64,000 nt of DNA from Thermodesulfovibrionales bacterium. GTDB taxonomy: Bacteria; Nitrospirota; Thermodesulfovibrionia; Thermodesulfovibrionales; SM23-35. Position numbers and translations under genes: made by a program. Below, piece after piece: positions 8,977 through 23,291 of this stretch. The stretch covers positions 1 to 64,000 of the forward strand of contig CAVQRT010000006.1 of the NCBI GenBank assembly GCA_963715195.1, written 5' to 3'. Numbering within the stretch: position 1 is the first letter of the stretch; the number at the start of each line of letters is the position of its first letter. The notes under the pieces are model-generated. The model was not told the origin of the DNA. It made no database searches and worked only from the letters and a program-made list of their open reading frames with translations.

Positions 8977-9507
8977 TTAGTAAAAAGAAGCTTTTCTCCG
9001 GAGGTCTTCGACAACCCGCTTGATATGGTAAACACCTCTGATGTTCAATTCACCTGCTCTTGTTTTCAGCAGGAGAGAACCGATATGAAAAGGCGCCTCA
9101 ATCAAATTCTGCTTGAAAGAGATTTCATGAATATCAGAGACGAGGATAAACTCTTCTTTCCGTGCCAGATGTCCCGTCAGCAGGCGGATGCGGGTCGTAT
9201 CTATTTCATAGTAACTCATGATATTCCACAGTAATATCCGCAGGCCGTAGACAAGAAAGGGTATTGATAGAAGCTTCCCGTACGGCAGATTCTGCAGAAG
9301 TCTGATGCGGGGGGTATGAAGGTTTGCAATGAGACTGACAATGGTTTTGGAGACGACCGGAGAATATTTAATCAACAAATAAGCACTGCCAAAGCAAATG
9401 GCGTAAATGACGAGAAAAGAAATTGGTGAGGGTTTTTGTCTGTAATAGAACTCAGCTTTTTCCAAAAAGAATTCCTCCGTGTAATTCACGCATCCGCCTG
9501 AATGCAT
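8977..9507 (-). CDS. Membrane protein with bacterial PH (bPH_2) domain
   Basis: Two TM segments, then YEIDTTRIRLLTG...IHEISFKQNLIEAPFHIGSL; start uncertain. Confidence 0.65.
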   Translation of the reverse strand: MHSGGCVNYTEEFFLEKAEFYYRQKPSPISFLVIYAICFGSAYLLIKYSPVVSKTIVSLIANLHTPRIRLLQNLPYGKLLSIPFLVYGLRILLWNIMSYYEIDTTRIRLLTGHLARKEEFILVSDIHEISFKQNLIEAPFHIGSLLLKTRAGELNIRGVYHIKRVVEDLRRKASFY

Positions 9508-9584
9508 GGCGGGGTGGACGGGACTTGAACCCGCGACCTCTGGCTTGACAGGCCAGCGTTCTAACCGGGCTGAACTACCACCCC
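9507..9584 (-). tRNA. tRNA-Asp(GTC)
   Basis: GGGGTGG-TA-GTTC...CTGGC CTGTCAA GCCAG...GCGGG TTCAAGT CCCGT-CCACCCC-GCCA folds as a cloverleaf. Confidence 0.97.
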
Positions 9585-9735
9585 CTTATTGGCAAAACAG
9601 AAAGCAGAAAAATGTATACGGGCTGAGGAAAATAATCAGAAAGCATCCGTACAATCGGATAAAACCGATCTATTATACCTGTTTTCCGAATATATTTCTT
9701 TTAAAACCTTTTTTCTGCTTCTGTGTACACACTCA

Positions 9736-9811
9736 TGGTAGGCGGAACAGGGCTTGAACCTGTGACCTCAGCCTTGTAAGGGCTGCGCTCTCCCAACTGA
9801 GCTATCCGCCC
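9736..9811 (-). tRNA. tRNA-Val(TAC)
   Basis: GGGCGGA-TA-GCTC...CAGCC CTTACAA GGCTG...ACAGG TTCAAGC CCTGT-TCCGCCT-ACCA folds as a cloverleaf. Confidence 0.97.
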
Positions 9812-10100
9812 AGGAATTAATTTTATACACTATCAAAACGTTTGTTGTCAATTGACTTGCATGGATGTGCAACGGATGTGAATGAATTCCTGGGAACCGG
9901 ATGTTTATGAAAAAAGTTTTCATATTTGATGATATATGGGAAAAACCACTTTACCTGAAAAATCACTTTGTGTTATTGTCATGTAACCCGAATGCACAGT
10001 TGATTTGTTTATGATGTATTAATGATTGCTAAAAAAAAGGTAACGAAGGGCGATCCGGAAATTCCCGGACCGCCCTTCATAGTCAAAAAGGAGCATTTAT

Positions 10101-10883
10101 ATGCTGATCATTGGTGAAAAGCTGAGCATCATAGCCAAGAGGGTTCGTGAAGCAATGATGAAGAGAGAGAAATCGCCAATACAGGATATCGCAATTGCCC
10201 AGTGGAAGGCGGGTGCAGGGATGATCGATGCCAATATAGGCCCTGCAGAGGATGGCGGTGACGCCTTAATGCAGTGGATGGTTACAACGATTCAGGAAGC
10301 AGTTCCCCTGCCGGTTTGCCTTGATACAACAAATTACCAGGCAATAGAAGCCGGGCTCGGGGTTCACAATAACCAGTGGGGAAGGCCCCTTATCAATTCA
10401 ACCTCAAATGATCCGGAACGGTTTCCCATGCTTGAACTGGCAGCAAAGCATCGTTCCCAGATCATCGGCCTGACGGTAGGGAAGGGCGGACTCCCTGCCG
10501 ACGCTGAAGAAAGAGCATCCATCGCTGCGGAAATTATGGCGCGGGCTGCAGAGTTTGGTGTTCCTCTGGAGGATGTATATCTTGATCCGCTTGTGCTCCA
10601 GATAGCTACTTCCCAGGATCATGCCCTGAAGGTGGTAAAGGCTGTTAAAATGTTTCAGGAATTAAATGATCCGCCCATGAAGACGGTGGTGGGTCTCAGC
10701 AATATCTCGAACGGCTGCCCCAAACATGTAAGGCCGATTATGAATAATTTCTATCTGTCTCTTTTAATATACGAAGGACTTACTGCTGCGATAGCCGATC
10801 CTCATGATGTTTCACAGACGGTAAAGACTATTGACGTGATATTGGGCAATACCCTGTATGCCCATTCGTATCTGGAAATGTAA
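10101..10883 (+). CDS. acsE: Methyltetrahydrofolate:corrinoid iron-sulfur protein methyltransferase
   Basis: MLIIGEK, LDTTNYQAIEAGL, LINST, VYLDPL, VGLSNISNG pterin-binding barrel; first gene of the acs cluster. Confidence 0.92.
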   Translation: MLIIGEKLSIIAKRVREAMMKREKSPIQDIAIAQWKAGAGMIDANIGPAEDGGDALMQWMVTTIQEAVPLPVCLDTTNYQAIEAGLGVHNNQWGRPLINSTSNDPERFPMLELAAKHRSQIIGLTVGKGGLPADAEERASIAAEIMARAAEFGVPLEDVYLDPLVLQIATSQDHALKVVKAVKMFQELNDPPMKTVVGLSNISNGCPKHVRPIMNNFYLSLLIYEGLTAAIADPHDVSQTVKTIDVILGNTLYAHSYLEM

Positions 10884-10888
10884 AAATA

Positions 10889-10980
10889 GGGTCCGAAGAT
10901 TCAAGGGGTCAAGGATTCAAGTGATAAAATGAAATTTCACTGAAATCCCCGAATCCCTGGGTCTCTGAATCCTTTTAACC
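10889..10980. repeat. Intergenic hairpin built from 8-bp-period repeats (GGATTCAA-like / TGAATCC-like)
   Basis: GGGTCCGA AGATTCAA GGGGTCAA GGATTCAA GTGA ... TCAC TGAAATCC CCGAATCC CTGGGTCT CTGAATCC. Confidence 0.75.
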
Positions 10981-10996
10981 AGGTTCAGGAGGTGAT

Positions 10997-11938
10997 ATGC
11001 CATTTACCCGCCCGAGAGAGAGTTATGCCGGTAAGGTTTATCCTGTCGCAATAGGTACAGAACCCCGTGAGATTGTCTTTGGTGGTGAGAATGTGTTTCC
11101 TTTCCATGCCTTCGAGGGATCGATCCCGCATAAACCGGTCATTGCATATGAAATTCAGGACATTTTTCCTGATGACTGGCCTGCAGAGGTTCAGAAGCCG
11201 TATGCGGATGTCTTGAACAACCCTGTTTCATGGGCTCAATTCTGCCGTGACACCCTGAATGCTCAAGTCATTGCGCTCAGACTTGCAGGGACTCATCCGG
11301 ACAGGGCAGACCGTTCCCCTGAAGACGCTGCTGCCACCGTGCGGGAAGTACTCTCATCAGTAGATATCCCTTGCATACTGCTCGGAAGCAATCATGCGGA
11401 AAAGGATGCTTCCGTCCTCATAGCGGCTGCCGAGGCTGCAAAAGATAGGAACTGCATTATCGGCAAGGCGCAGGAATCGAATTACAAGACGATCGCCGCT
11501 GCCGCAATGGCAAATAATCATAAGCTCGTGGCGATGTCTGAGCTCGACATCAATCTCTCGAAGCAGCTGAATATCCTTGTTACACAGATGGGGTTCGATA
11601 AAGAGAAGATTATTATCGATCCGATGTGTTCGGCTCTTGGTTACGGAATTGAGTATACCTATTCTGTCATGGAGCGGATACGTATGGCTGCTCTTGCGCA
11701 AAATGATCCGACCATGCAGCAGCCTATGCTCGGTGATGTGGGTATGTACGTATGGAAAGTAAAAGAGACGCAGGCAGGTGAAGACGACGTGCCGAACTGG
11801 GGAAGCCTGAAAGAGCGTGGTATTGCATGGGAGGCTGTGACAGCCATGACCCTTCTTTTGGCAGGAACCGAAATCCTCATCATGCGGCACCCGGAAGCAA
11901 TAAAGGCAGTTGAAAAAGTGATCGAAGAATTAGCCTAA
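10997..11938 (+). CDS. acsD: Corrinoid iron-sulfur protein small subunit (delta)
   Basis: GGENVFPFHAFEG, DINLSKQLN, ALGYGIEYTYSVMERIR, WEAVTA...MRHP. Confidence 0.95.
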   Translation: MPFTRPRESYAGKVYPVAIGTEPREIVFGGENVFPFHAFEGSIPHKPVIAYEIQDIFPDDWPAEVQKPYADVLNNPVSWAQFCRDTLNAQVIALRLAGTHPDRADRSPEDAAATVREVLSSVDIPCILLGSNHAEKDASVLIAAAEAAKDRNCIIGKAQESNYKTIAAAAMANNHKLVAMSELDINLSKQLNILVTQMGFDKEKIIIDPMCSALGYGIEYTYSVMERIRMAALAQNDPTMQQPMLGDVGMYVWKVKETQAGEDDVPNWGSLKERGIAWEAVTAMTLLLAGTEILIMRHPEAIKAVEKVIEELA

Positions 11939-12016
11939 GGTGATCAAGGATTCAAGGATTCGGCGAAAATTAACAATCAATTACCCGAACCCTTTGACCC
12001 TTGACGACTTGAATCC
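11939..12016. repeat. Second 8-bp-period repeat hairpin
   Basis: GGTGATCAA GGATTCAA GGATTCGG ... CCGAACCC TTTGACCC TTGACGAC TTGAATCC. Confidence 0.75.
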
Positions 12017-12036
12017 TATGAGTTCTGGAGGTTTTG

Positions 12037-13380
12037 ATGGCGTTAACTGGCGTTGAGATATTCAAACTCCTTCCGAAAACAAATTGCAAGAAATGCGGGT
12101 TCCCTACCTGTCTGGCCTTTGCGATGAAACTCGCCCAGCGGCAGGCATCTCTGGATTTATGTCCGGATGTTTCAGATGAGGCAAGGCAGAAGCTCGGTGA
12201 GGCATCTGCTCCTCCGGTACGGCCGATAGTTCTCGGCTCGGGTGAAAAAGCAGTAAAGATGGGGGAAGAAACCGTGCTTTTCAGACATGATAAACGGTTT
12301 GTGAACCCCTGTGCTTTTGCACTGGAAATAAAAGATACGTTGACCGACGCGGAAATAAAGCAGAAGGTAGCGGAAGTCATTCACTCGGAAATCGACAGAG
12401 TGGGGCAGAAACTCAGGATTGATGCGATAGCACTGGTGAATGACTCTGCCGATGAAGGGAGATTCGCGAGTGCGGCATCTGTCGTTGCTTCGGATGCCCC
12501 TGCTGTTCCCGTAATATTGTGCACTGCGAACCCGCAAACTGCCGAAAGTGCACTGAAGATATTTCCCGACAAGAAGCCGGTCATCTGCGGGATGAATTCA
12601 GACAATATCGAAGCCATGGCAGCCCTTGCAAAATCCTGGAAGGCGACACCCGGAGTGTCTGCAAAGGGACTGGATGAACTCGTTCAACTTACGGAAAAAG
12701 CGAAGGCTCTCGGTATTGAGGACATGGTGATCGACTCAGGCGGCCGGACTGCAAAAGAGATCCTCGAGCACAACACCCTGATCAGGAGATCTGCCGTCAA
12801 GAAGAATTTCAAGCCTCTCGGTTATCCTGTGATAACATTTGCACAGCGGGAAAATACCCTTCTCGAAACGCTGATTGCAACAATTGGAATAGCGAAATAC
12901 TCTTCGATCATAGTCCTGAGTAGTATCGAACAGTGGAAAACCCTTGCCCTATTTACGCTCAGGCAGAATATTTACACTGACCCGCAGGTTCCGATGCAGG
13001 TGGAGCAGAAGATTTACAAAATCGGTGAGCCGACGCCGACATCACCTCTGTTTATTACGACGAATTTTTCGCTCACCTATTTTATTGTCTCAGGTGAAAT
13101 AGAGAATAGCAAAACGCCAGGGCACCTTGCTGTTATGGACTGTGAGGGGCTTTCTGTTTTGACAGCTTGGGCAGCAGGCAAATTTACCGCATCAAAAATT
13201 GCCCAGTTCATACACGAAAGCGGCGTAGAGAATCAGATTCGGCACAAAGAGCTAATCATTCCTGGTTATGTAGCGATATTAAGCGGTGCACTCGAAGATA
13301 AGCTTGAAGGCTGGAAGATTACGGTTGGACCCCGGGAAGCAAACGGAATCAGCGCATTTCTCAAGTCCAAACACCAGTAG
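12037..13380 (+). CDS. acsC: Corrinoid iron-sulfur protein large subunit (gamma)
   Basis: LPKTNCKKCGFPTCLAFAM...CP Fe-S motif; LRQNIYTDPQ, TTNFSLTY, GLSVLTAWAAGKF. Confidence 0.97.
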   Translation: MALTGVEIFKLLPKTNCKKCGFPTCLAFAMKLAQRQASLDLCPDVSDEARQKLGEASAPPVRPIVLGSGEKAVKMGEETVLFRHDKRFVNPCAFALEIKDTLTDAEIKQKVAEVIHSEIDRVGQKLRIDAIALVNDSADEGRFASAASVVASDAPAVPVILCTANPQTAESALKIFPDKKPVICGMNSDNIEAMAALAKSWKATPGVSAKGLDELVQLTEKAKALGIEDMVIDSGGRTAKEILEHNTLIRRSAVKKNFKPLGYPVITFAQRENTLLETLIATIGIAKYSSIIVLSSIEQWKTLALFTLRQNIYTDPQVPMQVEQKIYKIGEPTPTSPLFITTNFSLTYFIVSGEIENSKTPGHLAVMDCEGLSVLTAWAAGKFTASKIAQFIHESGVENQIRHKELIIPGYVAILSGALEDKLEGWKITVGPREANGISAFLKSKHQ

Positions 13381-13537
13381 ACAGCAGGTAGTTGGAAAGA
13401 ACTAAGAACTAAAACATGACAACGATGAGCAAATGGTAGGCAGGATAAAGGTTGTGGCGATAATACAAAGAAAGATAGAATGTTTTTCCCCGTCTGCAAT
13501 CTATTACATTGCTATCTACTGATTAAGGGGGATTATC

Positions 13538-15736
13538 ATGTCAAAGTTTATAGCCTCGGCAGCGATTAAAGGTGCTCAGAGAATTACCAGAGAGGCTGAA
13601 GAGATGCTCCGAAAGGCTGTTGCCGAGAAGGGCGAAAATTACAGTTTCGAATTTCCGGACACTGCATACTACCTTCCCTTGTTCTATGCCCTGACGGGAT
13701 TCCCCGTGAAGACACTCTCGGACATGAGGGTCGCACTCGGCATGGTACAAGAAATGCTCCATCCGGATCCTGAGGAGCAGATCTGGACGCCTTATCTGGG
13801 AGAAGCACTCGATTCAGGAATGGCGACACTCTTCTCTGAAGAGATCATTATGGCGATACGCTATATATATGGCCTTGAGCCAGCAGTCGATCCCGAAACG
13901 GGCTATATATACAACGGCTTCGTCACTGATACAATCCAGCGGAATCTTGGTATACAGCTGGTGGATGGAACAATGCCGGGGTTTGCTGCCATTATCGGTG
14001 CAGCTCCGGATGATGATACTGCAGTAAAAATAATACGGGAGCTTCAGGAAAAGAATATCCTGATCTTTCTCTCAGGTCATGTGCGTGGCAATAGTATGAC
14101 GAAACAGCTCCTCAGAAAAGGGATTGAACTCGGTTGGGATACGAGAATTGTCCCTGTTGGTCCGGATACGGAACATACCGTTTATCCGCTCAATTGGTCT
14201 ATCAGGGCCTCTCTCATTTACGGTGGGAGAAAACCCGGGGATTTTAAAGGCCATTTGAAATACACGAAAGACAGGGTTTTTGCCTTTGCACTCGTACTCG
14301 GTGAGCTCGATGATATGAAGTGGTCAAACGGTGCCGGTGCCATCAATATGGGGTATCCGGCGATATGCGATACAGACGTCCCTGTTATTCACCCGACGGG
14401 TGTATGCACGTATGAGGAGGTGGAGAAAGAACTTGATCATACGAAGATTGTCCAGAAGGCGATAGAAGTCAGGGGACTGAAGATTACTGTTGAAAAGCCG
14501 CCAATACCCGTTGCCTATGGGCCGGCATTTGAAGGGGAAAGAATTCGCAAGGAGGATATGTTTCTTGAGTTTGGCGGAGCCCGTACCTCATCATTTGAGT
14601 GGGTCCGGATGAGGGAGATGGATGAAATTGAGGACGGAAGGGTTGAAATTGTCGGAAACAATTGGCATGAAACCTATGAGAAAGGTGGTCAGATGCCGTT
14701 GGCCATTGTCATCGATGTTGCCGGGCGAAAAATGCAGAAAGATTTTGAGGGAGTTATTGAAAGAAAGATTCATCATAATATCAATGAGGCGCAGGGCATT
14801 TGGCACATGGGGCAGCGCGATATCAACTGGATGCGGATAAGCAATAATGCAAAAAAGGACGGTTTTACCCTGGAGCATCTCGGCATCCTTAATGCAACTA
14901 TGACCCATAGCAGGTTCAGATCCATTGTTGATAAGGTACAGGTTACTATTTATACGGACGAAGAAGATGTCGTAAGACTCCGGGAAGAGGCAAGGAAATC
15001 ATACAAAGAGCGTGATCAGAGGCTTGGCGGTCTTGTGGATGAATCAGTGGACACATTCTATTCGTGCCTCCTCTGCCAGTCATTTGCGCCAAGCCATGTC
15101 TGTGTCATAAGCCCCGAGAGGCTCGGCCTCTGCGGTGCATATAACTGGCTTGACTGTAAGGCTGCTTTCGAGATAGACCCGACAGGGGGAAATCAACCGA
15201 TTCTAAAGGGTACACAGATTGATACACGGTTCGGCAGATATACGGGAATCGATGATTATCTGAAAAAGGCTTCGGGTGGTGCCGTTGAGACGCTGAACCT
15301 TTATACCATCATGGAAAACCCGATGACTTCATGCGGATGCTTCGAGTGCATTGTTGCAATTATTCCCGAAGCGAACGGTGTTATGATCGTCAACCGAGGT
15401 CATACTGGAATGACGCCGGCGGGAATGAAATTTTCGACGCTGGCGGGAACAGTCGGCGGCGGAACCCAGAATCCCGGATTCATGGGCATAGGCAGAAATT
15501 TTATTGTCAGTAAGAAATTTCTTGCCGGAGACGGGGGAATCAGGCGGATCGTCTGGATGACAAAAAATCTGAAAGAAAGTCTCAGAGAAGATTTCGAAAA
15601 AAGAGCTGCTGAAGAAGGGGTGTCGGACCTTTTCGACAAGATAGCGGACGAAACAATCTGTGAGGAACCTGAGAAGCTGGTCGAGTTCCTCACGGGCGCA
15701 GGACATCCGGCACTCGAAATGGAGCCGATGTTTTAA
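13538..15736 (+). CDS. acsB: Acetyl-CoA synthase subunit of CODH/ACS
   Basis: FPDTAYYLP, FYSCLLCQSFAPSHVC...RLGLCGAY, PMTSCGCFE A-cluster motifs. Confidence 0.97.
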   Translation: MSKFIASAAIKGAQRITREAEEMLRKAVAEKGENYSFEFPDTAYYLPLFYALTGFPVKTLSDMRVALGMVQEMLHPDPEEQIWTPYLGEALDSGMATLFSEEIIMAIRYIYGLEPAVDPETGYIYNGFVTDTIQRNLGIQLVDGTMPGFAAIIGAAPDDDTAVKIIRELQEKNILIFLSGHVRGNSMTKQLLRKGIELGWDTRIVPVGPDTEHTVYPLNWSIRASLIYGGRKPGDFKGHLKYTKDRVFAFALVLGELDDMKWSNGAGAINMGYPAICDTDVPVIHPTGVCTYEEVEKELDHTKIVQKAIEVRGLKITVEKPPIPVAYGPAFEGERIRKEDMFLEFGGARTSSFEWVRMREMDEIEDGRVEIVGNNWHETYEKGGQMPLAIVIDVAGRKMQKDFEGVIERKIHHNINEAQGIWHMGQRDINWMRISNNAKKDGFTLEHLGILNATMTHSRFRSIVDKVQVTIYTDEEDVVRLREEARKSYKERDQRLGGLVDESVDTFYSCLLCQSFAPSHVCVISPERLGLCGAYNWLDCKAAFEIDPTGGNQPILKGTQIDTRFGRYTGIDDYLKKASGGAVETLNLYTIMENPMTSCGCFECIVAIIPEANGVMIVNRGHTGMTPAGMKFSTLAGTVGGGTQNPGFMGIGRNFIVSKKFLAGDGGIRRIVWMTKNLKESLREDFEKRAAEEGVSDLFDKIADETICEEPEKLVEFLTGAGHPALEMEPMF

Positions 15737-15759
15737 GAAACAGGAAATTTGGAGGTTGT

Positions 15760-17745
15760 ATGGATAAAGTTGTAAAGAGTGCAGATGAACAGTCTGAAAG
15801 GATTATAGAGTGGAGTGAATCTCAGAATATAGAGACATGTTTTGAGAGGGCTCAGAAACTGAAACCATGCCCTATTGGTTCTGCCGGAGCCTGCTGCAGG
15901 ATGTGCCATGTCGGACCATGCCGCCTTGTGGGACAGAATGCCGAAGAAGATGCAACAGGGGTATGCGGCGCAACTCTGCCCACTATAGCAGCCAGGAATT
16001 TCCTGCGCATGGCTGCAGCCGGATCAGCTGCCCATTCAGACCATGCGCGTGGTATGGCATTTACCCTCCTGTCTGTTGCGAATGGAGAAGTGGATGACTT
16101 CAGGATAACGGATGTGAAAAAACTTTACAGAATAGCAGGAATTCTCGGGATTGAATTTGAATCCCGGCCGGTGAATGACGTTGCACGGGATGTGGCAATG
16201 AAGCTGATCGAGGACTTTGGACGACAGAGAGGCACGCTGTACTTCATGCAAAGAGCACCTGAAAAGACCCGGCAACGGTGGAAACAGTGGGGAATCATGC
16301 CGAGGGGCATTGACAGGGAAATAACGGAAGCGCTGCACAGGACGAATATCGGCGTTGACCATGAACCGGATAATCTCCTTCTGAGCGCACTCAGGGTTTC
16401 CCTTGCGGACGGGTGGGGCGGATCGATGATATCAACGGATATTACGGATATTCTTTTCGGAACCCCAAGGCCGAAGAAGGCTGAAGCGAGTTTCGGGATA
16501 TTCAAGGAAGACGAAGTTAACCTTGTCGTGCACGGACATGAACCGTCACTTGCGGAGATCCTCGTGGATGTGGTGGATGAACCCGAGATGATCGCATATG
16601 CGAAATCGAAAGGGGCTGCGGGGATCAACCTCGGAGGGATGTGCTGCACGGCAAATGAAGTATTGATGAGGCACGGCATTCCGACGGCCGGAGGGTTCAC
16701 CAACCAGGAACTCGCTGTTCTGACCGGTCTTGTCGATGCTATGACCGTGGATGTTCAGTGCATCATGCCAGCACTGACAGGGCTTGCAAAGAAATTCCAC
16801 ACAAAGATCATCACAACGTCCTATAAGGCAAAGATGCCCGGGGCGATGCATATCGAATTTGACGAACACCGGGCACGGGATATAGCCCGACAGATCGTGA
16901 AGATTGCCGCAGATAATTATGTTAACAGGAAAACGAAGGGGAGTTTCATTACCGATACCTTCCCCGTGATTGGCGGGTTTTCCCATGAGTATATTGAATA
17001 CATGCAAGGGGGTCGGTGGAGGGCCTCTTTCAGACCACTCAATGATGCAATCATGGCAGGGAGAATCAGGGGGGTTGTCGGGCTTGCAGGATGTGACAAC
17101 CCCAGGGTGCCTGCCCAGGGGCTTCACCGTTTTCTTGCCTCTGAATTGATCAGGAAGGATGTGCTTATTGTATCTACAGGATGCGGTTCTGCCGCATGCG
17201 GGACTGCCGGTTTTTTAACACCGGAGACAGCTTTGGAAATTGCAGGCCCCGGATTGAGAGAAGTGTGCGAGGCAATCGGAATTCCGCCAATTCTGCATCT
17301 CGGCGCCTGTGTCGATAATTCACGGATTCTGACCATTATTTCAGCTATGGCTGAAGAAGGTGGACTCTCCGACGAGATCGGGGGAATGCCTGCAGTCGGC
17401 ATTGCACCTGAATGGATGTCAGAGAAAGCGGTAGCAATTGGGTGTTATCTTGCTGCATCAGGCGTGCCGGTTATTTTTGGCGGCGAATCCCCTGTCGGAG
17501 CAAGCAAACAGGTGACACACATCATGACCGAGGTCTGGTTTGAGCGATTCAGGGGTGCCTTCCATTTTGAACCTGATCCCGAAAAGATGCTAGCCCTTGC
17601 CCTGAACTATATCGACAGGGCCCGTGAAAGCCTGAAGCTCAGGAAATATGAGCCCGGAAAGTTCGGAGGTGAGAGGGTTCTCATGGATATGGCTGCGCGG
17701 CGTGAAATTGAGAGGGCGGCAAAACCTCATCTCGGAATTTATTAG
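15760..17745 (+). CDS. cooS: Anaerobic Ni-carbon monoxide dehydrogenase catalytic subunit (AcsA)
   Basis: CCRMCHVGPC B-cluster; HGHEP, GMCCTANE, DVQC, AGCDN, STGC, GACVDNSR C-cluster ligands. Confidence 0.96.
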   Translation: MDKVVKSADEQSERIIEWSESQNIETCFERAQKLKPCPIGSAGACCRMCHVGPCRLVGQNAEEDATGVCGATLPTIAARNFLRMAAAGSAAHSDHARGMAFTLLSVANGEVDDFRITDVKKLYRIAGILGIEFESRPVNDVARDVAMKLIEDFGRQRGTLYFMQRAPEKTRQRWKQWGIMPRGIDREITEALHRTNIGVDHEPDNLLLSALRVSLADGWGGSMISTDITDILFGTPRPKKAEASFGIFKEDEVNLVVHGHEPSLAEILVDVVDEPEMIAYAKSKGAAGINLGGMCCTANEVLMRHGIPTAGGFTNQELAVLTGLVDAMTVDVQCIMPALTGLAKKFHTKIITTSYKAKMPGAMHIEFDEHRARDIARQIVKIAADNYVNRKTKGSFITDTFPVIGGFSHEYIEYMQGGRWRASFRPLNDAIMAGRIRGVVGLAGCDNPRVPAQGLHRFLASELIRKDVLIVSTGCGSAACGTAGFLTPETALEIAGPGLREVCEAIGIPPILHLGACVDNSRILTIISAMAEEGGLSDEIGGMPAVGIAPEWMSEKAVAIGCYLAASGVPVIFGGESPVGASKQVTHIMTEVWFERFRGAFHFEPDPEKMLALALNYIDRARESLKLRKYEPGKFGGERVLMDMAARREIERAAKPHLGIY

Positions 17746-17765
17746 GTTAAGGATCGGGAGAAACG

Positions 17766-18260
17766 ATGAACGTGGATGAACTGCATATCGATGACGAGAT
17801 CGGAGCTGTCGGCAGGATACTCTCCGATAACGAAAAGAAAAAGGGAATTCTGATCCATGCATTGCATACGATTCAGGAAGATCAGGGGTATCTGCCTGAA
17901 GATGTTCTCAGAAGACTTTCGAATAACCTGAATATCCCCCTGTCTGATATCTACAGCGTGGCAAGTTTCTACAAGATGTTTCACTTCAAACCCCGGGGGA
18001 AAAAGATTGTGAAAGTCTGCCTCGGTACCGCATGTTACGTGAGAGGGTCTAAACATCTTCTCACAACTCTCGAAAACGAATTTCATGTCCAGAACGGAGA
18101 GACAACAGAAGACCTTGCGATGACACTCGAGACGGTAGGGTGCGTCGGATGCTGCGGCCTTGCGCCAGTATCCACAATTAACGATGAAGTCACCGGAGAA
18201 ATAATCGGAGACAGGAGAATAGAACAGTTTATCCAATTAATAAAAAATGGTTCTGAATAA
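17766..18260 (+). CDS. NuoE/HydC-like [2Fe-2S] subunit
   Basis: VCLGTACYVRG and VGCVGCCGLAP. Confidence 0.92.
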   Translation: MNVDELHIDDEIGAVGRILSDNEKKKGILIHALHTIQEDQGYLPEDVLRRLSNNLNIPLSDIYSVASFYKMFHFKPRGKKIVKVCLGTACYVRGSKHLLTTLENEFHVQNGETTEDLAMTLETVGCVGCCGLAPVSTINDEVTGEIIGDRRIEQFIQLIKNGSE

Positions 18261-18293
18261 ATACTGGTGCAATCTGTCGGACTGAATATCTAC

Positions 18294-20624
18294 ATGGCAA
18301 AGCTAAACAATATCGACGATCTCAGAAACCTGAGGGCTCTCCTCCGGGAAGCCTCCAGAACCGGAAAGGACACGCTTAAGGTCTGTTGTGGTCTCCCATG
18401 CAGCACTCTGGGATCCCAGGCTGTTGCACGGGAACTGGAAACGGAGGCGGCAAAAAGCGGTCTGGAAGTAGAGATCGTCAAAACCGGTTGTCAGGGTTTC
18501 TGTCAGAGAGGCCCGCTGTTGCAGGTTGACCCGTATGGCTATTTTTATCAAAAGGTACAGCCGGACAAAGCAAAAGAAATCATTTCTCTCACGTGCTCTA
18601 GCGGGTTGCCTGTGAGAGACTTATCTTACAGGGATACTTTTCTTAATACCCCTAAGGAATTTATAAGGGATATACCGTTTTATGCAAAGCAGATGAAGAT
18701 CGCGCTCAGGAATACGGGCACTATCGATCCTTTCAGTATCCACCAGTATATTGCCGCCGGTGGCTATTCAGCAGCAGAGAAGATGTTTTCCTCCATGAGC
18801 CCCGAACAGGTGCTTGAAGAGGTTAAAAAAGCAAACCTTAGGGGGCGCGGTGGTGCCGGGTTCCCTGCAGGGATAAAATGGGCGCACACAAAGCGGGCAC
18901 TGGGAAATATAAAGATGGTCATTGCCAACGGAGACGAGGGCGACCCCGGTGCTTTCATGGACAGGTCAATCATGGAAGGGGATCCGCACAGCCTCCTCGA
19001 AGGGATGCTCGTCTGTGCCTATGTAATCGATGCAAAATACGGGTTTATTTATGTACGGCACGAATATCCTCTTGCCATTAAGACATTGAAAACAGCCATC
19101 AAGCAGGCAGAAGAAATTGGCCTGCTGGGAACGAATATTCTTGGCACCGGTTTTGATTTTACCGTCCAGATCAGGGAAGGGGCAGGTGCTTTTGTTTGCG
19201 GGGAGGCCACCTCGCTCGTTGCTTCAGTGGAAGGAAACCGTGGATTTCCCCATGCGCGGCCTCCCAGGGTTTCGGAAGTCGGAGGCGGCCCATGGGGGTA
19301 CCCGGCCAATCTGAACAATGTAGAAACCTTTGCATGTGTTCCGCCGATTATCGAGAAAGGTGCAGACTGGTTTCTCGGTATCGGCACCCAGGGGTCGCCG
19401 GGAACAAAAGTTTTTTCCCTGGCCGGGAAAGTCAAACATACGGGACTGGTGGAAGTGCCAATGGGAATAACGTTGCGGGAAATTATCTTCGATATCGGGG
19501 GAGGGATCATAGGAAACAAACAGTTCAAGGCCGTACAAACCGGAGGACCGTCCGGAGGATGCATCCCTGAGCAGTATCTCGACCTTCCGGTCGACTTTGA
19601 TTCTCTCTGGAAAGTCGGTTCTATCATGGGTTCAGGCGGCATGGTTGTCATGGACGAGGACACCTGCATGGTGGATATCGCGAAATACTTCCTTTCTTTT
19701 ACCCAGGCGGAATCGTGCGGAAAATGTCCTCCGTGCAGGGTCGGTACTTACCAGATGCTGCAGATACTGCAGAGAATAACGTCCGGAGAGGGTAAGCAGG
19801 GCGATATAGAGGAACTCGAGAGACTCGGGCATCTTGTGGTTGCAGGATCCCTCTGCGGACTGGGAAAAAGCGCACCGAATCCTGTTCTCACTACCATCAG
19901 ATATTTCAGGAATGAGTATGAAGAGCATGTCCATGAAAAATACTGCAGGGCGAACGTGTGCAACATCGGGTTCTTCATGATCAATCAGGAGGAGTGTATC
20001 CTCTGCGGGCTCTGCAAACAAGCGTGTGCATTTCAGGCTGTTAGGGAAACACGGAAGGGGTTCTTCATTGACCGCGATTACTGCACGAAGTGCAAGGCAT
20101 GCTATCATGTTTGTCCGGTCAATGCGGTACAGATTCTCAAGAAGACATACGTAAGGCTTGAAGAGGAACTGAGATTGGCGCCTGAGAGTCTTGAGTTCAT
20201 CGAAAGGAGACGCAAGATGACGTTAAAGGATATCCTTGAGTCAAGACCTTCTGAGATCGTAACGATCACCACAGACCATACGGTTTCAGAGGCTGTCATC
20301 CGCATGAGGGAAAAGCATGTGAGCGGACTTTTTGTTGTTGATGAACATAACCGGCTGGTGGGCATTTTCACTGAGCGGGATATCGTCCGGTGTGTTTACG
20401 ATAATATTTCGACGGCAGAAAAACTCGAAAACCTCATCATGCGCGATATCATTACCTTTGATCCGGGAACAGATGTCAGCACGGCGATTTCCGTTGCATC
20501 GAGGAAGAAGATACGGCATTTGCCGGTCGTCGAGGATAAAACCATTGTAGGAATGATCACCTTCAGGGATCTGGTCTCGTATCTTCTCCCCGAGATCTGT
20601 TTCATGGCAGATACGATGTATTAG
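18294..20624 (+). CDS. NuoF/HydB-like NAD(P)H-binding flavoprotein with N-terminal [2Fe-2S], C-terminal 2x[4Fe-4S] and fused CBS pair
   Basis: GRGGAGFP, NGDEGDPGAFMDRS, GGPSGG, ESCGKCPPCRVG, two CxxCxxCxxxC; then VSGLFVVDE..LVGIFTERD and IRHLPVVE..IVGMITFRDL. Confidence 0.92.
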   Translation: MAKLNNIDDLRNLRALLREASRTGKDTLKVCCGLPCSTLGSQAVARELETEAAKSGLEVEIVKTGCQGFCQRGPLLQVDPYGYFYQKVQPDKAKEIISLTCSSGLPVRDLSYRDTFLNTPKEFIRDIPFYAKQMKIALRNTGTIDPFSIHQYIAAGGYSAAEKMFSSMSPEQVLEEVKKANLRGRGGAGFPAGIKWAHTKRALGNIKMVIANGDEGDPGAFMDRSIMEGDPHSLLEGMLVCAYVIDAKYGFIYVRHEYPLAIKTLKTAIKQAEEIGLLGTNILGTGFDFTVQIREGAGAFVCGEATSLVASVEGNRGFPHARPPRVSEVGGGPWGYPANLNNVETFACVPPIIEKGADWFLGIGTQGSPGTKVFSLAGKVKHTGLVEVPMGITLREIIFDIGGGIIGNKQFKAVQTGGPSGGCIPEQYLDLPVDFDSLWKVGSIMGSGGMVVMDEDTCMVDIAKYFLSFTQAESCGKCPPCRVGTYQMLQILQRITSGEGKQGDIEELERLGHLVVAGSLCGLGKSAPNPVLTTIRYFRNEYEEHVHEKYCRANVCNIGFFMINQEECILCGLCKQACAFQAVRETRKGFFIDRDYCTKCKACYHVCPVNAVQILKKTYVRLEEELRLAPESLEFIERRRKMTLKDILESRPSEIVTITTDHTVSEAVIRMREKHVSGLFVVDEHNRLVGIFTERDIVRCVYDNISTAEKLENLIMRDIITFDPGTDVSTAISVASRKKIRHLPVVEDKTIVGMITFRDLVSYLLPEICFMADTMY

Positions 20625-20633
20625 GATTGGACT

Positions 20634-21245
20634 ATGACTGATAAGAAGGAACGAAACACGGGCGATATTATACAGGAGGCAGGCAGTCTGTCCTGTCCGG
20701 TACAGAAGGCTGCGTATTATATGGATGCATTTCTCAAAGAGCTCATGTGCGGCAGGTGTTTCCCCTGTGCTTTCGGAACCTATGAGGCGGCAATTATCCT
20801 GAAGAAGATCATATCCGGCAACGCTGCAACTGCTGATATTGATGCATTGCGCCGCATCGCGGACGTGATGCTGACTGCTTCGCGGTGCAAAAAGGGCAGG
20901 GAGACGGCGCAGTTTATGGCTGAGTTACTAAAGTCAGAGACATTTCCCGAACACGTCGAAGGCAGGTGCCCTGCCCGGGAGTGCATATCGTTTATCGAAT
21001 ACCGGATTATCCCTGAAAAATGTATTCTCTGCGGTGAGTGTATGAAGGTATGCAGATATAATGCAGTCGCCGGCGAGAAAAAAGTTGCATATCTGAGTGG
21101 TTACCTGCCGTTTGAGATCGTGTCCAAAAGATGCACGCAATGCGGTGAGTGCATGAAGGTATGCCCGAATGATGCGATAATCATTGTTGACAAAAGAGAG
21201 CTCGCAGAAGAAATAGCAGACAGGCAGCAATATGCCCGTCCTTGA
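20634..21245 (+). CDS. Stand-alone NuoF/HydB C-terminal Fe-S module
   Basis: SCPV, MCGRCFPCAFG, SRCKKG, EHVEGRCPAREC, CILCGECMKVC, CTQCGECMKVCP. Confidence 0.8.
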   Translation: MTDKKERNTGDIIQEAGSLSCPVQKAAYYMDAFLKELMCGRCFPCAFGTYEAAIILKKIISGNAATADIDALRRIADVMLTASRCKKGRETAQFMAELLKSETFPEHVEGRCPARECISFIEYRIIPEKCILCGECMKVCRYNAVAGEKKVAYLSGYLPFEIVSKRCTQCGECMKVCPNDAIIIVDKRELAEEIADRQQYARP

Positions 21246-21269
21246 GTGGTACATCAACCGGAGGTAGCT

Positions 21270-23291
21270 ATGTCGAATATGATAACCGTCACCATCGACG
21301 GAAAAGATGTCCAGGTCACCGAAGGGATAAACATCATAGATGCTTCGGAGATTGCAGGGATTCACATACCGAATCTCTGTTATTTGAAGGGAATGAAGGG
21401 AATGGGTGCATGCAGACTCTGCCTCGTTGAGGTGGAGGGTCTCAAAGCACCGGTCCTCGCTTGCAATACGAAAGTCAGGGATGGCATGGCGGTGCGAACG
21501 ACGACTGATAAGATTCAGGAAGTCAGAAAGTTCGTCATCGATCTCCTTCTTTCCATGCACCCTCTCGACTGCATGACATGCACAAAAGCAGGAGTATGTA
21601 ACCTTCAGCGGTATGCCTATGATTTCGGGCTGAAGGAGTCTTCGTTCAGCAGGAAAACGTTCGGATATACGGTTGATGATGCGAATCCGTTCATCAAACG
21701 GGATCCTGATTACTGTATTCTCTGCGGACGCTGCGTAAGGGTATGCAAAGAACAGGGAACGCATGTCCTTGAGTTTATGGGGAGAGGCATAGAATCAAAG
21801 GTCATTACCGCCGGGGACAGGCCTTTGCAGGAGTCATCATGCACGTTCTGCGGAAGCTGTGTGGATGCGTGTCCGGTGAATGCCCTGCTCGAATCAGACC
21901 GTTGGCGCACGGGCAGGGAATGGGAATACCAGAAAATGCACTCCGTCTGTCTCCTCTGTGGAAATAGCTGTGCCATAACGGCAAGCACAAAAGACGGCAG
22001 AATTCAGAAAATCAATGCGGGGGCGAACGCGGGTTCTGCCGAACGCTATATCTGTGCATATGGCAGGTTCGGTTTCGACAGTATTGAAGCCGACACCAGG
22101 CTGACAAGACCGATGAAAAGAATGAACGGTGAACTGAAAGAGACAACGTGGGAAGATGCCTTTGAGACTGTTGCGAGCCGGTTGAAGCATGCCGCCAGGG
22201 AGACAGGGTTCATCAGTACTGCGGGGATTACCAATGAGGATGCCCTGATCCTGAAGAAGTTCGCCAGGGACGTCGTGAAAACAGAGAACCTTGACACGAC
22301 CGTAAGCCTCTATGCAGACGGTGATTTTTTCATCCAGTCACAAAAGGCCGACATCGATCGTGCTGATCTGATAATACTGGTGGATATGAATCCATCCCAG
22401 TGGAAAAGGGTTCTCCCGGCTCTCGATGCCTCCGTGCGAAGGCGGGTTGAGAGGGGTGCAAAGCTCATCGTCATCAATCAATCCGAAAGCGCGCTTGGGG
22501 AGATTGCAACCGTCAATCTGACGGGAGAAGTCATATCTGCTTTGAAGGGTACTGCAAAAATTCTTATCGAAAAGGGATTGAAGGCAGACAGAAAGTTCAG
22601 GGCATCTGTGCAGAATGTTGAGGTGACGGAAGAGTTGGAAAAAGCAGCGGACCTTATCGCTGGAGCGAGCGAACCCCTTATTTTTTCATCTCCCTCTTTC
22701 TTCGAAGCTTCAGCCAACATTGCACTGTTGAAAGGAAAGATCATCGCTGTTCCCCTCGAAAGTAATGCAAAAGGTGTTTCCCTGATGGGCCTGACTTCCG
22801 TCGGCAAATCCTTCAGGGAGATGCTAAGCGGAAAAACGAAAGTTCTCTATACTGTTGGAGATGTGCCGGTCAGCCAGAGACCGGATACGGATTTCCTTAT
22901 TGTACAAAACCCGCATCTCACGCCACTTGCCGAACAGGCTGATCTTGTGCTTCCATCAGCTGCTTTTTGGGAAGTCTCCGGCACAGTGGTTGATTCCATG
23001 GGGAGATTGAAGCATTTGCATAAAATTGTTGAGCCCTACGGAGAATCAATGAGCCACAGGGATATCTTTATCGGTCTTTCCAAGTCCATGGGGGCGGCAT
23101 TGCAGAGACCGACGGAGGCTGAGGTCAGGAAGTCGGTGAGTGTGAAGATGAAGATCAGGTTCAGCCCATTTGTCAGGAATGAACGGTTCGACATCGCCTC
23201 TGAAGAGTTTATCGAAACGATGAATGCATCGGTGATTCTTGGTTCGCGATTGCTGTGGCTCAAAGAGACGGCGAAAGTGGCAGCAGGATGA
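21270..23291 (+). CDS. NuoG/formate dehydrogenase alpha-like Fe-S protein with degenerate molybdopterin domain
   Basis: IPNLC..ACRLCLVE, HPLDCMTC..C, CILCGRCVRVC, CTFCGSCVDACP, VCLLCGNSC..ICAYG; no H-cluster or Mo-ligating (C/U)H motif seen. Confidence 0.85.
   Translation: MSNMITVTIDGKDVQVTEGINIIDASEIAGIHIPNLCYLKGMKGMGACRLCLVEVEGLKAPVLACNTKVRDGMAVRTTTDKIQEVRKFVIDLLLSMHPLDCMTCTKAGVCNLQRYAYDFGLKESSFSRKTFGYTVDDANPFIKRDPDYCILCGRCVRVCKEQGTHVLEFMGRGIESKVITAGDRPLQESSCTFCGSCVDACPVNALLESDRWRTGREWEYQKMHSVCLLCGNSCAITASTKDGRIQKINAGANAGSAERYICAYGRFGFDSIEADTRLTRPMKRMNGELKETTWEDAFETVASRLKHAARETGFISTAGITNEDALILKKFARDVVKTENLDTTVSLYADGDFFIQSQKADIDRADLIILVDMNPSQWKRVLPALDASVRRRVERGAKLIVINQSESALGEIATVNLTGEVISALKGTAKILIEKGLKADRKFRASVQNVEVTEELEKAADLIAGASEPLIFSSPSFFEASANIALLKGKIIAVPLESNAKGVSLMGLTSVGKSFREMLSGKTKVLYTVGDVPVSQRPDTDFLIVQNPHLTPLAEQADLVLPSAAFWEVSGTVVDSMGRLKHLHKIVEPYGESMSHRDIFIGLSKSMGAALQRPTEAEVRKSVSVKMKIRFSPFVRNERFDIASEEFIETMNASVILGSRLLWLKETAKVAAG

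Follow-up and report, generated by a model that had tools for sequence, protein, structure and literature searches.

CO-linked Bfu enzymes, termed Codh-Bfu or CodhABCSF, have already been predicted (Schut et al. 2022, PMC9304861; Feng et al. 2025, PMC12318220), and the locus described here resembles these predictions in that BfuABC genes are clustered with CooS and CO is the proposed third substrate; neither enzyme has been purified. The published Codh-Bfu, however, come from Firmicutes only (four sequences, clade 49), are of Type 2, i.e. have a BfuA without A3 and A5, and combine CooF (WorS-like) with a C-terminal Zn-finger/helix of BfuA. By contrast, the module consisting of the genes termed E, F, X and G here occurs in Nitrospirota, features clusters A1–A5 together with a dead Mo domain, and comes with an extra subunit (X), an ACS-linked CODH and an optional CBS pair; no CooF gene is present between acsE and G. 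This architecture is distinct from that of published Codh-Bfu, whereas linking a Bfu enzyme to CO as such is a prediction already in print. Only two of the papers found use the terms Codh-Bfu or Por-Bfu. No description of a Nitrospirota E-F-X-G module was found in the literature covered, with subscription papers and bioRxiv supplements, where one may exist, lying outside this coverage, and the literature found contains no purified or assayed member of the module.

The window, i.e. the whole stretch of 64,000 nucleotides analysed, carries the locus as nine plus-strand ORFs between positions 10101 and 23291, arranged just as the preliminary description had outlined: acsEDCB–cooS and, 20 bp further on, tightly spaced nuoE-like, nuoF-like, small Fe-S and nuoG-like genes. 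Pfam and NCBIfam profiles uphold the names of all nine. The first five encode the methyl-THF:CFeSP methyltransferase AcsE (10101..10883; PF00809, and NF040758 with E 2e-73, below its cut-off), the small and large CFeSP subunits AcsD (10997..11938; NF003376) and AcsC (12034..13380; NF003195), the acetyl-CoA synthase AcsB (13538..15736; NF040764) and the Ni-CO dehydrogenase CooS/AcsA (15760..17745; TIGR01702), the last four above the cut-offs of the models named; best-specific models lie partly under cut-off for AcsE and AcsD and above it for AcsB and CooS. CooS, the proposed catalytic partner of the module, has cluster-ligand Cys and His residues that are invariant across 41 orthologues. The module itself comprises E (17766..18260), a BfuC/NuoE-like [2Fe-2S] subunit with the C1 cluster (PF01257, E 9e-45); F (18267..20624), a BfuB/HydB-type FMN subunit recognized by its domains and bifurcation signatures; X (20634..21245), by profile and alignment an FMN-less copy of the C-terminal half of BfuB with 203 aa; and G (21246..23291), by profiles and ligands a Type-3-like BfuA with clusters A1–A5 and a degenerate molybdopterin fold. 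Counted to the first possible start, the gaps cooS/E, E/F, F/X and X/G measure 20, 6, 9 and 0 bp; judging from homolog N-termini, F and G more likely start with the ATG codons at 18294 and 21270, respectively, which makes the E/F and X/G gaps 33 and 24 bp. Since it recurs across the order, the arrangement is not due to chance.

F has all features previously ascribed to the NuoF-like protein, i.e. an N-terminal [2Fe-2S] site (C41/C45/C75/C79), NGDEGDPGAFMDR at 221, GGPSGG at 426, the Cys/His site and two C-terminal CxxCxxCxxxC motifs. Alignment to HydB of 7T2R places the B2/Zn site, defined by Cys, His, Cys and Cys with Thr common at a fifth position, at C467, H554, C560 and C565, with T505; the Ala-Phe-Met motif (A229, M231), the GAF-loop Phe (F309), the GGPSG loop (G426–G431), an N-terminal B5 site and C-terminal B3/B4 clusters are present as well. 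From the BfuB domain set, made up of FMN-binding, SLBB, NuoF [4Fe-4S] and ferredoxin-type [4Fe-4S] domains and mapped here from InterPro to Pfam, PF01512, PF10589 and PF00037/PF14697 are strong in F and SLBB (PF10531, E 1.4e-4) falls below its cut-off; according to profile searches, the cluster also supplies a NuoE-like BfuC as well as a BfuA that has both [2Fe-2S] and [4Fe-4S] domains. Among PDB matches of F, nine HydB/BfuB chains rank best at E 1e-175 or better, whereas FdsB and NuoF follow at 1e-108 or worse. The top match (E 1.8e-216) is the NiFe-Bfu HydABCSL of Acetomicrobium mobile (PDB 7T2R; Type 3), which, unlike the window, has HydSL as partner, an NAD-type GEET motif, no X and no CBS pair; second comes the NADP-using HydABC of Thermoanaerobacter kivui (PDB 8A6T; PMC10021017), which likewise reads NGDEGD and has lost the Glu (GEST). 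F reads NGDEGD/GEAT, with Ala314 replacing the NADH-selecting Glu, whereas BfuB of the A. arabaticum Codh-Bfu reads NADEGD/GEET; F also departs from the motif lines given in the supplement of PMC9304861. The Glu rule is imperfect, since 14 of 90 F rows retain Glu and the Wor-BfuB of A. mobile reduces NAD+ in spite of its GESS; a literature search for NuoF E183A found nothing.

Three features had been absent from the preliminary description: a CBS pair on F, the nature of X as a copy of the BfuB C-terminal half, and a porCDAB-linked paralogue of the module. The CBS pair, fused to the C-terminus of F (residues 649–774, 20211..20588; PF00571 in two stretches, E 7e-26), occurs in 30 of the 46 genomes with a full CODH-type F sequence and is a candidate adenine-nucleotide sensor; as the strict two-site CBS nucleotide motif is found in only 12 of 34 pairs, its ligand is left unpredicted.

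For the NuoG-like protein, residue assignment, profiles and alignment bear out the earlier view of five Fe-S clusters with neither an H-cluster domain nor a (C/U)H Mo ligand. All 19 Cys of G can be placed in the five clusters (A1 45/56/59/73; A3 H105/109/112/118; A2 and A4 157–209; A5 235/238/242/270), its own sequence contains no Cys beyond residue 270 and hence no C-terminal Zn finger as in published Codh-Bfu, and the A3 and A5 ligands are present and invariant in 46 rows. Aligned to the formate dehydrogenase of the same genome, G has a gap where the latter has its TGA-His ligand pair; profile searches found neither PF01568 (pterin-binding domain IV) nor an H-cluster domain in G, and no PF02906 in the genome, which is 97.8% complete. 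G thus lacks what marks the BfuA of Fdh-Bfu (the Mo/W ligand (C/U)H plus domain IV) and that of [FeFe]-hydrogenase HydABC (the H-cluster domain, present in T. kivui HydA), and matches A. mobile NiFe-HydA (692 aa), a BfuA of similar size that likewise has no catalytic site. A long G in another locus (G065) proved to be an upstream-start artefact.

The proposed HydABC/Bfu-type identity is therefore borne out by all sequence features tested, and a linkage to CODH rather than to ACS, hydrogenase, FDH or MetF is supported by the genomes in which the module occurs, by its gene orders and by an apparent transfer together with cooS; the further parts of the proposal, bifurcating activity of E-F-X-G and its physical complex with CooS, are inferred. 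Our best reading, to which we give an even chance, is that E-F-X-G and CooS form a CODH-docked NADP(H)/ferredoxin bifurcating complex that serves as dedicated electron input or output of CODH. Electrons from the CODH clusters would enter via X and G, with X docked on G at the place that CooF takes in other CODHs, and would pass along A3/A2/A1 to B1-FMN, to be split there between NADP+ and, via C1-B3-B4, ferredoxin; the choice of NADP+ would stem from the Glu-to-Ala/Ser exchange at the adenosine-ribose site. In reverse, NADPH plus reduced ferredoxin would drive CO2 to CO with ACS pulling, which would halve the need for ferredoxin, and the CBS pair would probably tune activity to energy charge. 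One argument against this reading is energetic: with electrons at the average of NADPH and ferredoxin, reducing CO2 would cost about 16 kJ/mol at standard state, using potentials close to those in Table 1 of PMC9304861.

X contains a B1-like [4Fe-4S] site, a Zn/B2-like C/H/C/C site, two [4Fe-4S] clusters and a basic aromatic loop. This loop of the ferredoxin domain is basic in CODH-linked copies (+3.4 and +4.3; G[YF]xP[FY] in 60 of 67) and neutral in POR-linked ones (+0.2), of which 3 of 11 have the motif; such a difference would be expected if the surface were specific to the partner. In a complex prediction, X, G (residues 9–290) and two CooS fragments (1–245) scored 0.57 against 0.00 for the best control, with runs sharing at least 95% of contacts and partner pLDDT of at least 74. 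This is weak support. Among solved pairs 116 of 157 attain the mark applied, among mismatched pairs 2 of 215, but 18 of the 157 solved pairs and both mismatches do so at no more than 0.60; the pass may also stem from known structures, because BfuB has been solved on BfuA. With G replaced, X and the two CooS fragments scored 0.00, which, in a test that misses many true pairs and with CooS cut to 1–245, speaks neither for nor against binding of X to CooS. A conserved C-terminal tail of CooS was dismissed as docking element, since module-less CooS (family f18) align through it and module-bearing CooS (family f20) do not. An apparent X–G fusion (L126) was another upstream-start artefact.

Among 201 Nitrospirota genomes, 78 have X, 99 cooS and 114 acsB. 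Each of the 78 X-bearing genomes has cooS, and X occurs in none of the 102 genomes without cooS and in none of the 16 with acsB but no cooS; G agrees with X (78 of 201 genomes), and these genomes being kin rather than independent, no P value is given. The gene upstream of E, visible in 61 of 80 GTDB loci, is cooS in 50. Synteny, named earlier as a check, shows at least three gene orders with cooS adjacent to the module. In f20, which belongs to another class, the order is E-F-X-G-cooS, with cooS immediately behind G on the same contig in 28 of 29 G-bearing genomes and acsB matches on other contigs or distant from the module. Together with the presence of X in cooS-bearing genomes only, this indicates that the module tracks CooS, not ACS. 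One genome (G081) has cooS-E-F-X-G without an acs gene upstream, and two have the module sandwiched within the acs operon, as acsC|EFXG|acsB-cooS (G040) or as cooS-EFXG-acsB in a Brocadiia bin (G061). In the latter, cooS, F and G are 75, 66 and 61% identical to those of the window, as against 53, 48, 38 and 30% for acsB, acsC, acsD and acsE, and its cooS and G nest inside the order of the window, so that cooS and the module have apparently moved together; this bin provides the only strong match, besides one weak one, among 81 genomes of the class and could be a binning error.

It has to be considered that an unrelated NuoEFG-like operon simply lies beside acs without functional tie. Promoter and terminator scans of the locus gave results at shuffle (chance) level, with no clear terminator fold found after G or between cooS and E, and co-transcription is putative; three sequencing runs searched for transcripts (word shares 0.06–0.26, contigs only) contained short exact pieces on acs, cooS, E, F and G, none of which shows a transcript, and NuoE/F/G-like genes near WLP-type CODHs have been noted only as a statistical association (PMC6344411). 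Nevertheless, the different gene orders, the two sandwiches and the nesting of module presence within cooS presence make such mere neighbourhood highly improbable.

Exceptions speak against the best reading, and some of them for a further alternative, in which E-F-X-G is a soluble hub. Although co-transcribed with CODH, it would then be connected to that enzyme by free ferredoxin alone, and another complex, such as headless complex I, Hdr-Mvh or a hydrogenase, would bind at the third port (A3/A5). At threshold, 21 of 99 cooS-bearing genomes have no X; one module is frameshifted (G186), and five f18 genomes read have cooS-fhs alone, indicating that CooS works without the module. In three genomes (G047, G146, G223) nfnAB directly follows cooS in its place, which suggests that a soluble NADPH/ferredoxin enzyme can fill the slot; in three others (G041, G049, G053) cooS and the module are on different contigs; and two (G054, G163) retain acsB-E-F-F-X-G, with acsB as the only such neighbour, though the operon has lost its native cooS and the sole strong cooS match is divergent, lying in G054 beside 2-oxoacid oxidoreductase and FDH-like genes. 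Besides a nuo operon without nuoEFG (contig C35), the genome of the window encodes Rnf, HdrA-MvhDGA, two copies of NfnAB and a second NiFe hydrogenase, and Nuo-Bfu has been predicted for Nitrospirae (PMC9304861); the bfuABC genes that mark Nuo-Bfu are not found within this nuo operon. Yet complex I has a ferredoxin-like insert of its own in NuoD, and a generic hub has no need to follow cooS away from acsB, to be missing, as X and all 78 G orthologues are, from genomes without cooS, or to have a second, diverged copy at POR. We consider this hub somewhat unlikely; a hub dedicated to the pathway, the alternative given in the preliminary description, may nevertheless apply.

That second copy, located beside porCDAB on contig C33 of the same genome, joins F and X in one polypeptide that contains six ferredoxin-type motifs, which argues that X belongs to the complex. 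AlphaFold2 models of this natural fusion (pLDDT 61, pTM 0.42) were too low to use. The predicted Por-Bfu of Dehalococcoides and syntrophic Proteobacteria (PMC9304861) also has BfuABC by four-subunit POR genes, but is of Type 2, whereas all 11 POR-linked G copies group in a single clade (SH-aLRT 100) that is nested within the CODH-linked copies of family f1, from whose module the POR copy seems to have arisen within Nitrospirota. In f1, pyruvate:ferredoxin oxidoreductase would thus have gained a copy through a single duplication.

POR-linked and some tandem F copies have a ferredoxin-like arm longer by two [4Fe-4S] motifs, and X repeats this arm. This would fit a docked complex with other wiring: either the low-potential arm carries CODH or POR instead of ferredoxin, or the module is a simple bidirectional CO:NAD(P)+ oxidoreductase whose Bfu motifs are inherited. 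The potentials of CO2/CO (−520 mV) and pyruvate (−500 mV) are those of ferredoxin, and the authors of PMC9304861 themselves regard the necessity of bifurcation here as unclear. However, essentially every F copy read has retained the AFM, GGPSGG, His/Cys and B3/B4 features, which are absent from non-bifurcating homologues, and the low-arm model requires a mid-potential partner at A3, for which no gene is linked in any locus read. Such wiring appears unlikely.

CODH/ACS is regarded as purely ferredoxin-driven. The proposed CODH-docked bifurcating complex and its POR-linked copy suggest that, in these bacteria, NADPH powers part of two difficult CO2-fixing steps. If true, widespread subsurface Nitrospirota couple CO2/CO chemistry to NADP(H) too and, in one family, pyruvate synthesis likewise, which would lower the low-potential electron cost of autotrophy or make acetyl-CoA oxidation possible at very low CO. 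It is conceivable, if doubtful, that X represents a new kind of Bfu subunit, i.e. an FMN-less duplicate of the BfuB cluster arm that plugs a bifurcating core straight into ACS-linked CODH, with duplication of the cassette onto pyruvate synthase placing both low-potential CO2-fixing steps on NADPH plus ferredoxin confurcation, and with interchangeable tandem F (Glu versus Ser/Ala, with or without CBS) choosing the nucleotide and sensing energy charge. Should the module be the electron port of CODH/ACS, the predicted but unpurified Codh-Bfu and Por-Bfu classes would gain a testable representative, since the cultured Dissulfurispira thermophila has an annotated orthologue of X (JZK55_05520).

The genomic evidence that CooS is the partner of the E-F-X-G module is good. 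Of 201 Nitrospirota genomes searched with X, cooS, acsB and G, 78 had matches to X, 99 to cooS and 114 to acsB; all 78 X-positive genomes also carry cooS, and X is absent from 102/102 cooS-negative genomes, 16 acsB-positive ones among them, these genomes being drafts and kin among them not independent. A second set of 80 named loci overlaps with these genomes, and the two sets of counts are not to be summed. Sixty-one of these loci were scorable (16 had no E call and in 3 E was at an edge), and the gene upstream of E was cooS in 50, acsB in 2, acsC in 1 and another gene in 8. In family f20, which belongs to another class, cooS follows the module (E-F-X-G-cooS) in 28/29 G-bearing genomes (the 29th at a contig edge), with acsB located elsewhere. 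The pairing of cooS and module pointed out in the preliminary description recurs across Nitrospirota, with cooS either upstream of E or behind G. Two genomes have the module inside the acs operon, G040 and the Brocadiia bin G061; in the latter, cooS and the module resemble those of Nitrospirota, unlike the acs genes. Set beside this recurrence, a coincidental neighbourhood seems highly improbable. At threshold, 21/99 cooS-positive genomes have no X. Some of these carry a broken module (G186; G183 has G).

Other results speak against the link to cooS. Five loci of family f18 with cooS-fhs, and three genomes with nfnAB directly 3' of cooS (G047, G146, G223), are true alternatives to the module. 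Two genomes (G054, G163) keep the module behind acsB with the native cooS gone, three (G041, G049, G053) have module and cooS on separate contigs, and in G037 and G060 two opposite-strand genes intervene. Such arrangements would fit a soluble hub that does not dock on CODH, a reading that we consider doubtful but credible. A module docked on CODH but wired in some other way is unlikely. The window's genome does offer further possible partners, i.e. HdrA-MvhDGA, a second NiFe hydrogenase, Rnf, two NfnAB and a complex I without EFG, and no [FeFe]-hydrogenase domain was found in it. Judged from sequence, a CODH-docked NADP(H)/ferredoxin bifurcating complex has about an even chance of being correct. 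The complex I operon without nuoEFG (L217:2277-3583, contig C35, minus strand) has a 2x[4Fe-4S] ferredoxin-like domain inserted in the C-terminal part of NuoD, whose gene is split over several frames in this assembly, and is a candidate ferredoxin-input complex I. A divergent cooS (55%) in G054 (L098:4925-12523) has genes for 2-oxoacid oxidoreductase on one side and an FDH-like gene on the other, with a bicarbonate transporter gene next.

The nine genes at 10101..23291 (+), acsEDCB, cooS and the module (17766-23291), have the positions and identities first proposed, as seen from open reading frames and domain and family profiles; their nearest named records are from Thermodesulfovibrionales/Nitrospirota. 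F does carry the HydB-type features ascribed to it: GGPSGG, a [2Fe-2S] domain at the N-terminus, two [4Fe-4S] motifs at the C-terminus and a Cys/His/Cys/Cys site, here with Thr in fifth place. With A229, M231 and F309, these are marks of bifurcating BfuB subunits as defined in PMC9304861 with its supplement and in PMC12018979. A domain search placed a CBS pair at the end of F, seen in 30 of the 46 genomes for which a full-length F of the CODH type was available. Neither this pair nor the nature of X nor the porCDAB-linked paralogue featured in the preliminary description. In G, the five predicted clusters A1-A5 were borne out, with 19/19 cysteines as their ligands, and the remainder, correctly described as devoid of a Mo-ligating motif, is a molybdopterin fold without metal ligand or domain IV, a layout shared with HydA of the A. 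mobile NiFe enzyme, which is likewise empty. X duplicates the C-terminal half of BfuB minus the FMN domain; its predicted structure (pLDDT 93) can be overlaid on chains of BfuB (highest TM 0.71), and all 43 orthologues keep the residues that bind its clusters and Zn site.

What is shown are the parts, ligands and linkage of the module. In the proposed mechanism X would dock on G and relay electrons between CooS and the BfuBC core, which would split them between NADP+ and ferredoxin or, in reverse, merge NADPH/ferredoxin electrons for CO2 reduction. One complex prediction (0.57 vs 0.00) weakly suggests that X sits in a G-containing assembly; a pass in this range frequently proves false, and this one may echo BfuB-BfuA structures already known to the predictor. 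Calculated for the standard state, averaged NADPH/ferredoxin electrons lie at about -435 mV, short of CO2/CO by roughly 16 kJ/mol and of pyruvate synthesis by roughly 12 kJ/mol, and fixation would therefore need the product to be held low by ACS or by the use of pyruvate. At the position where Glu selects NADH over NADPH (PMC12018979, in part), F has Ala314, and 76/90 F rows have Ser or Ala; of the 14 Glu rows one is an unrelated FDH-type F. The NADP-using HydB of T. kivui (PMC10021017, in part) has Ser where the window's F has Ala, but A. mobile WorB uses NAD and yet has Ser, so that NADP(H) is likely, not certain, as the nucleotide of F. More than one F occurs in 13/46 genomes, 4 of these 13 pairing a Glu copy with a Ser copy.

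PMC9304861 predicts Type 2 Codh-Bfu in Firmicutes and Type 2 Por-Bfu in Chloroflexi/Proteobacteria; PMC12318220 has the CODH type using CooF and awaiting purification, and PMC6344411, in the passages covered, lists NuoE/F/G-like COGs in the gene contexts of WLP-associated CODHs but does not interpret them. The module was not mentioned in the passages of PMC10203281, PMC11033732 and PMC8027613 that matched the search terms. The window's system has the sequence characters of the Bfu family but lacks two defining features of the published Codh-Bfu, and therefore appears to be a separate variant, which may nevertheless work like the latter. The E-F-X-G architecture is real and conserved, and in the papers searched it is undescribed.

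The window's genome has four NuoEFG-like sets. Besides that of the window locus, a paralogue (47-65% identical) with fused F and X lies 325 bp upstream of porCDAB. A third (L003:3728-14691, contig C31), with an F lacking the C-terminal ferredoxin domain and a G that has lost the (C/U)H pair, neighbours two glutamate-synthase-like FMN genes and two NrpR regulators. In the fourth (L004:8766-16195, contig C7), E and a frameshifted F accompany a formate dehydrogenase whose gene contains TGA; a Crp-type gene and then fhs come next. In a quick IQ-TREE run of 74 rows, the 11 available G sequences linked to POR make up a single clade (SH-aLRT 100) that sits within the CODH-linked copies of family f1, and 10/11 POR-linked F fall together with the second F of tandem pairs in CODH operons (FastTree), which have two extra clusters too; G044 has a single module with cooS on one side and porCDAB on the other. 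One duplication plus an F-X fusion would be the simplest history of the POR copy. The loop in the ferredoxin domain of X, basic in CODH-linked copies (G[YF]xP[FY] in 60/67) and neutral in POR-linked ones (3/11), is by this comparison altered with the move to POR. The porC at L001:6141-6712 (contig C33) encodes 126 aa vs about 191 aa in relatives, probably owing to a frameshift in the assembly.

Elsewhere, near-complete genomes of family f11 (10/10) and genus g50 (3/3) have acsEDCB operons but no cooS was found in them, a case of ACS without CODH; the loci are L103:7583-13000 (G046), L104 (G058) and L232 (G173). At L215:6566-13306 (contig C3 of the window's genome), folD precedes a 673-aa GltD/DsrL-like flavoprotein, a possible methyl-branch redox partner, and two unassigned genes, purD and metF follow. 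A small gene separates acsC from acsB in L208, L209, L143, L163, L174 and L175; in L208, where it was scanned, it encodes a regulator of the Fur family. In the window, the spacers after acsE and acsD (10884-10996 and 11939-12033) contain short repeated words of the CAAGGATTCAAG type with inverted copies, and a strong hairpin just upstream of acsE (10043-10080, z -5.0), itself preceded by tRNA-Asp and tRNA-Val (9507-9811), is terminator-like for the minus strand.
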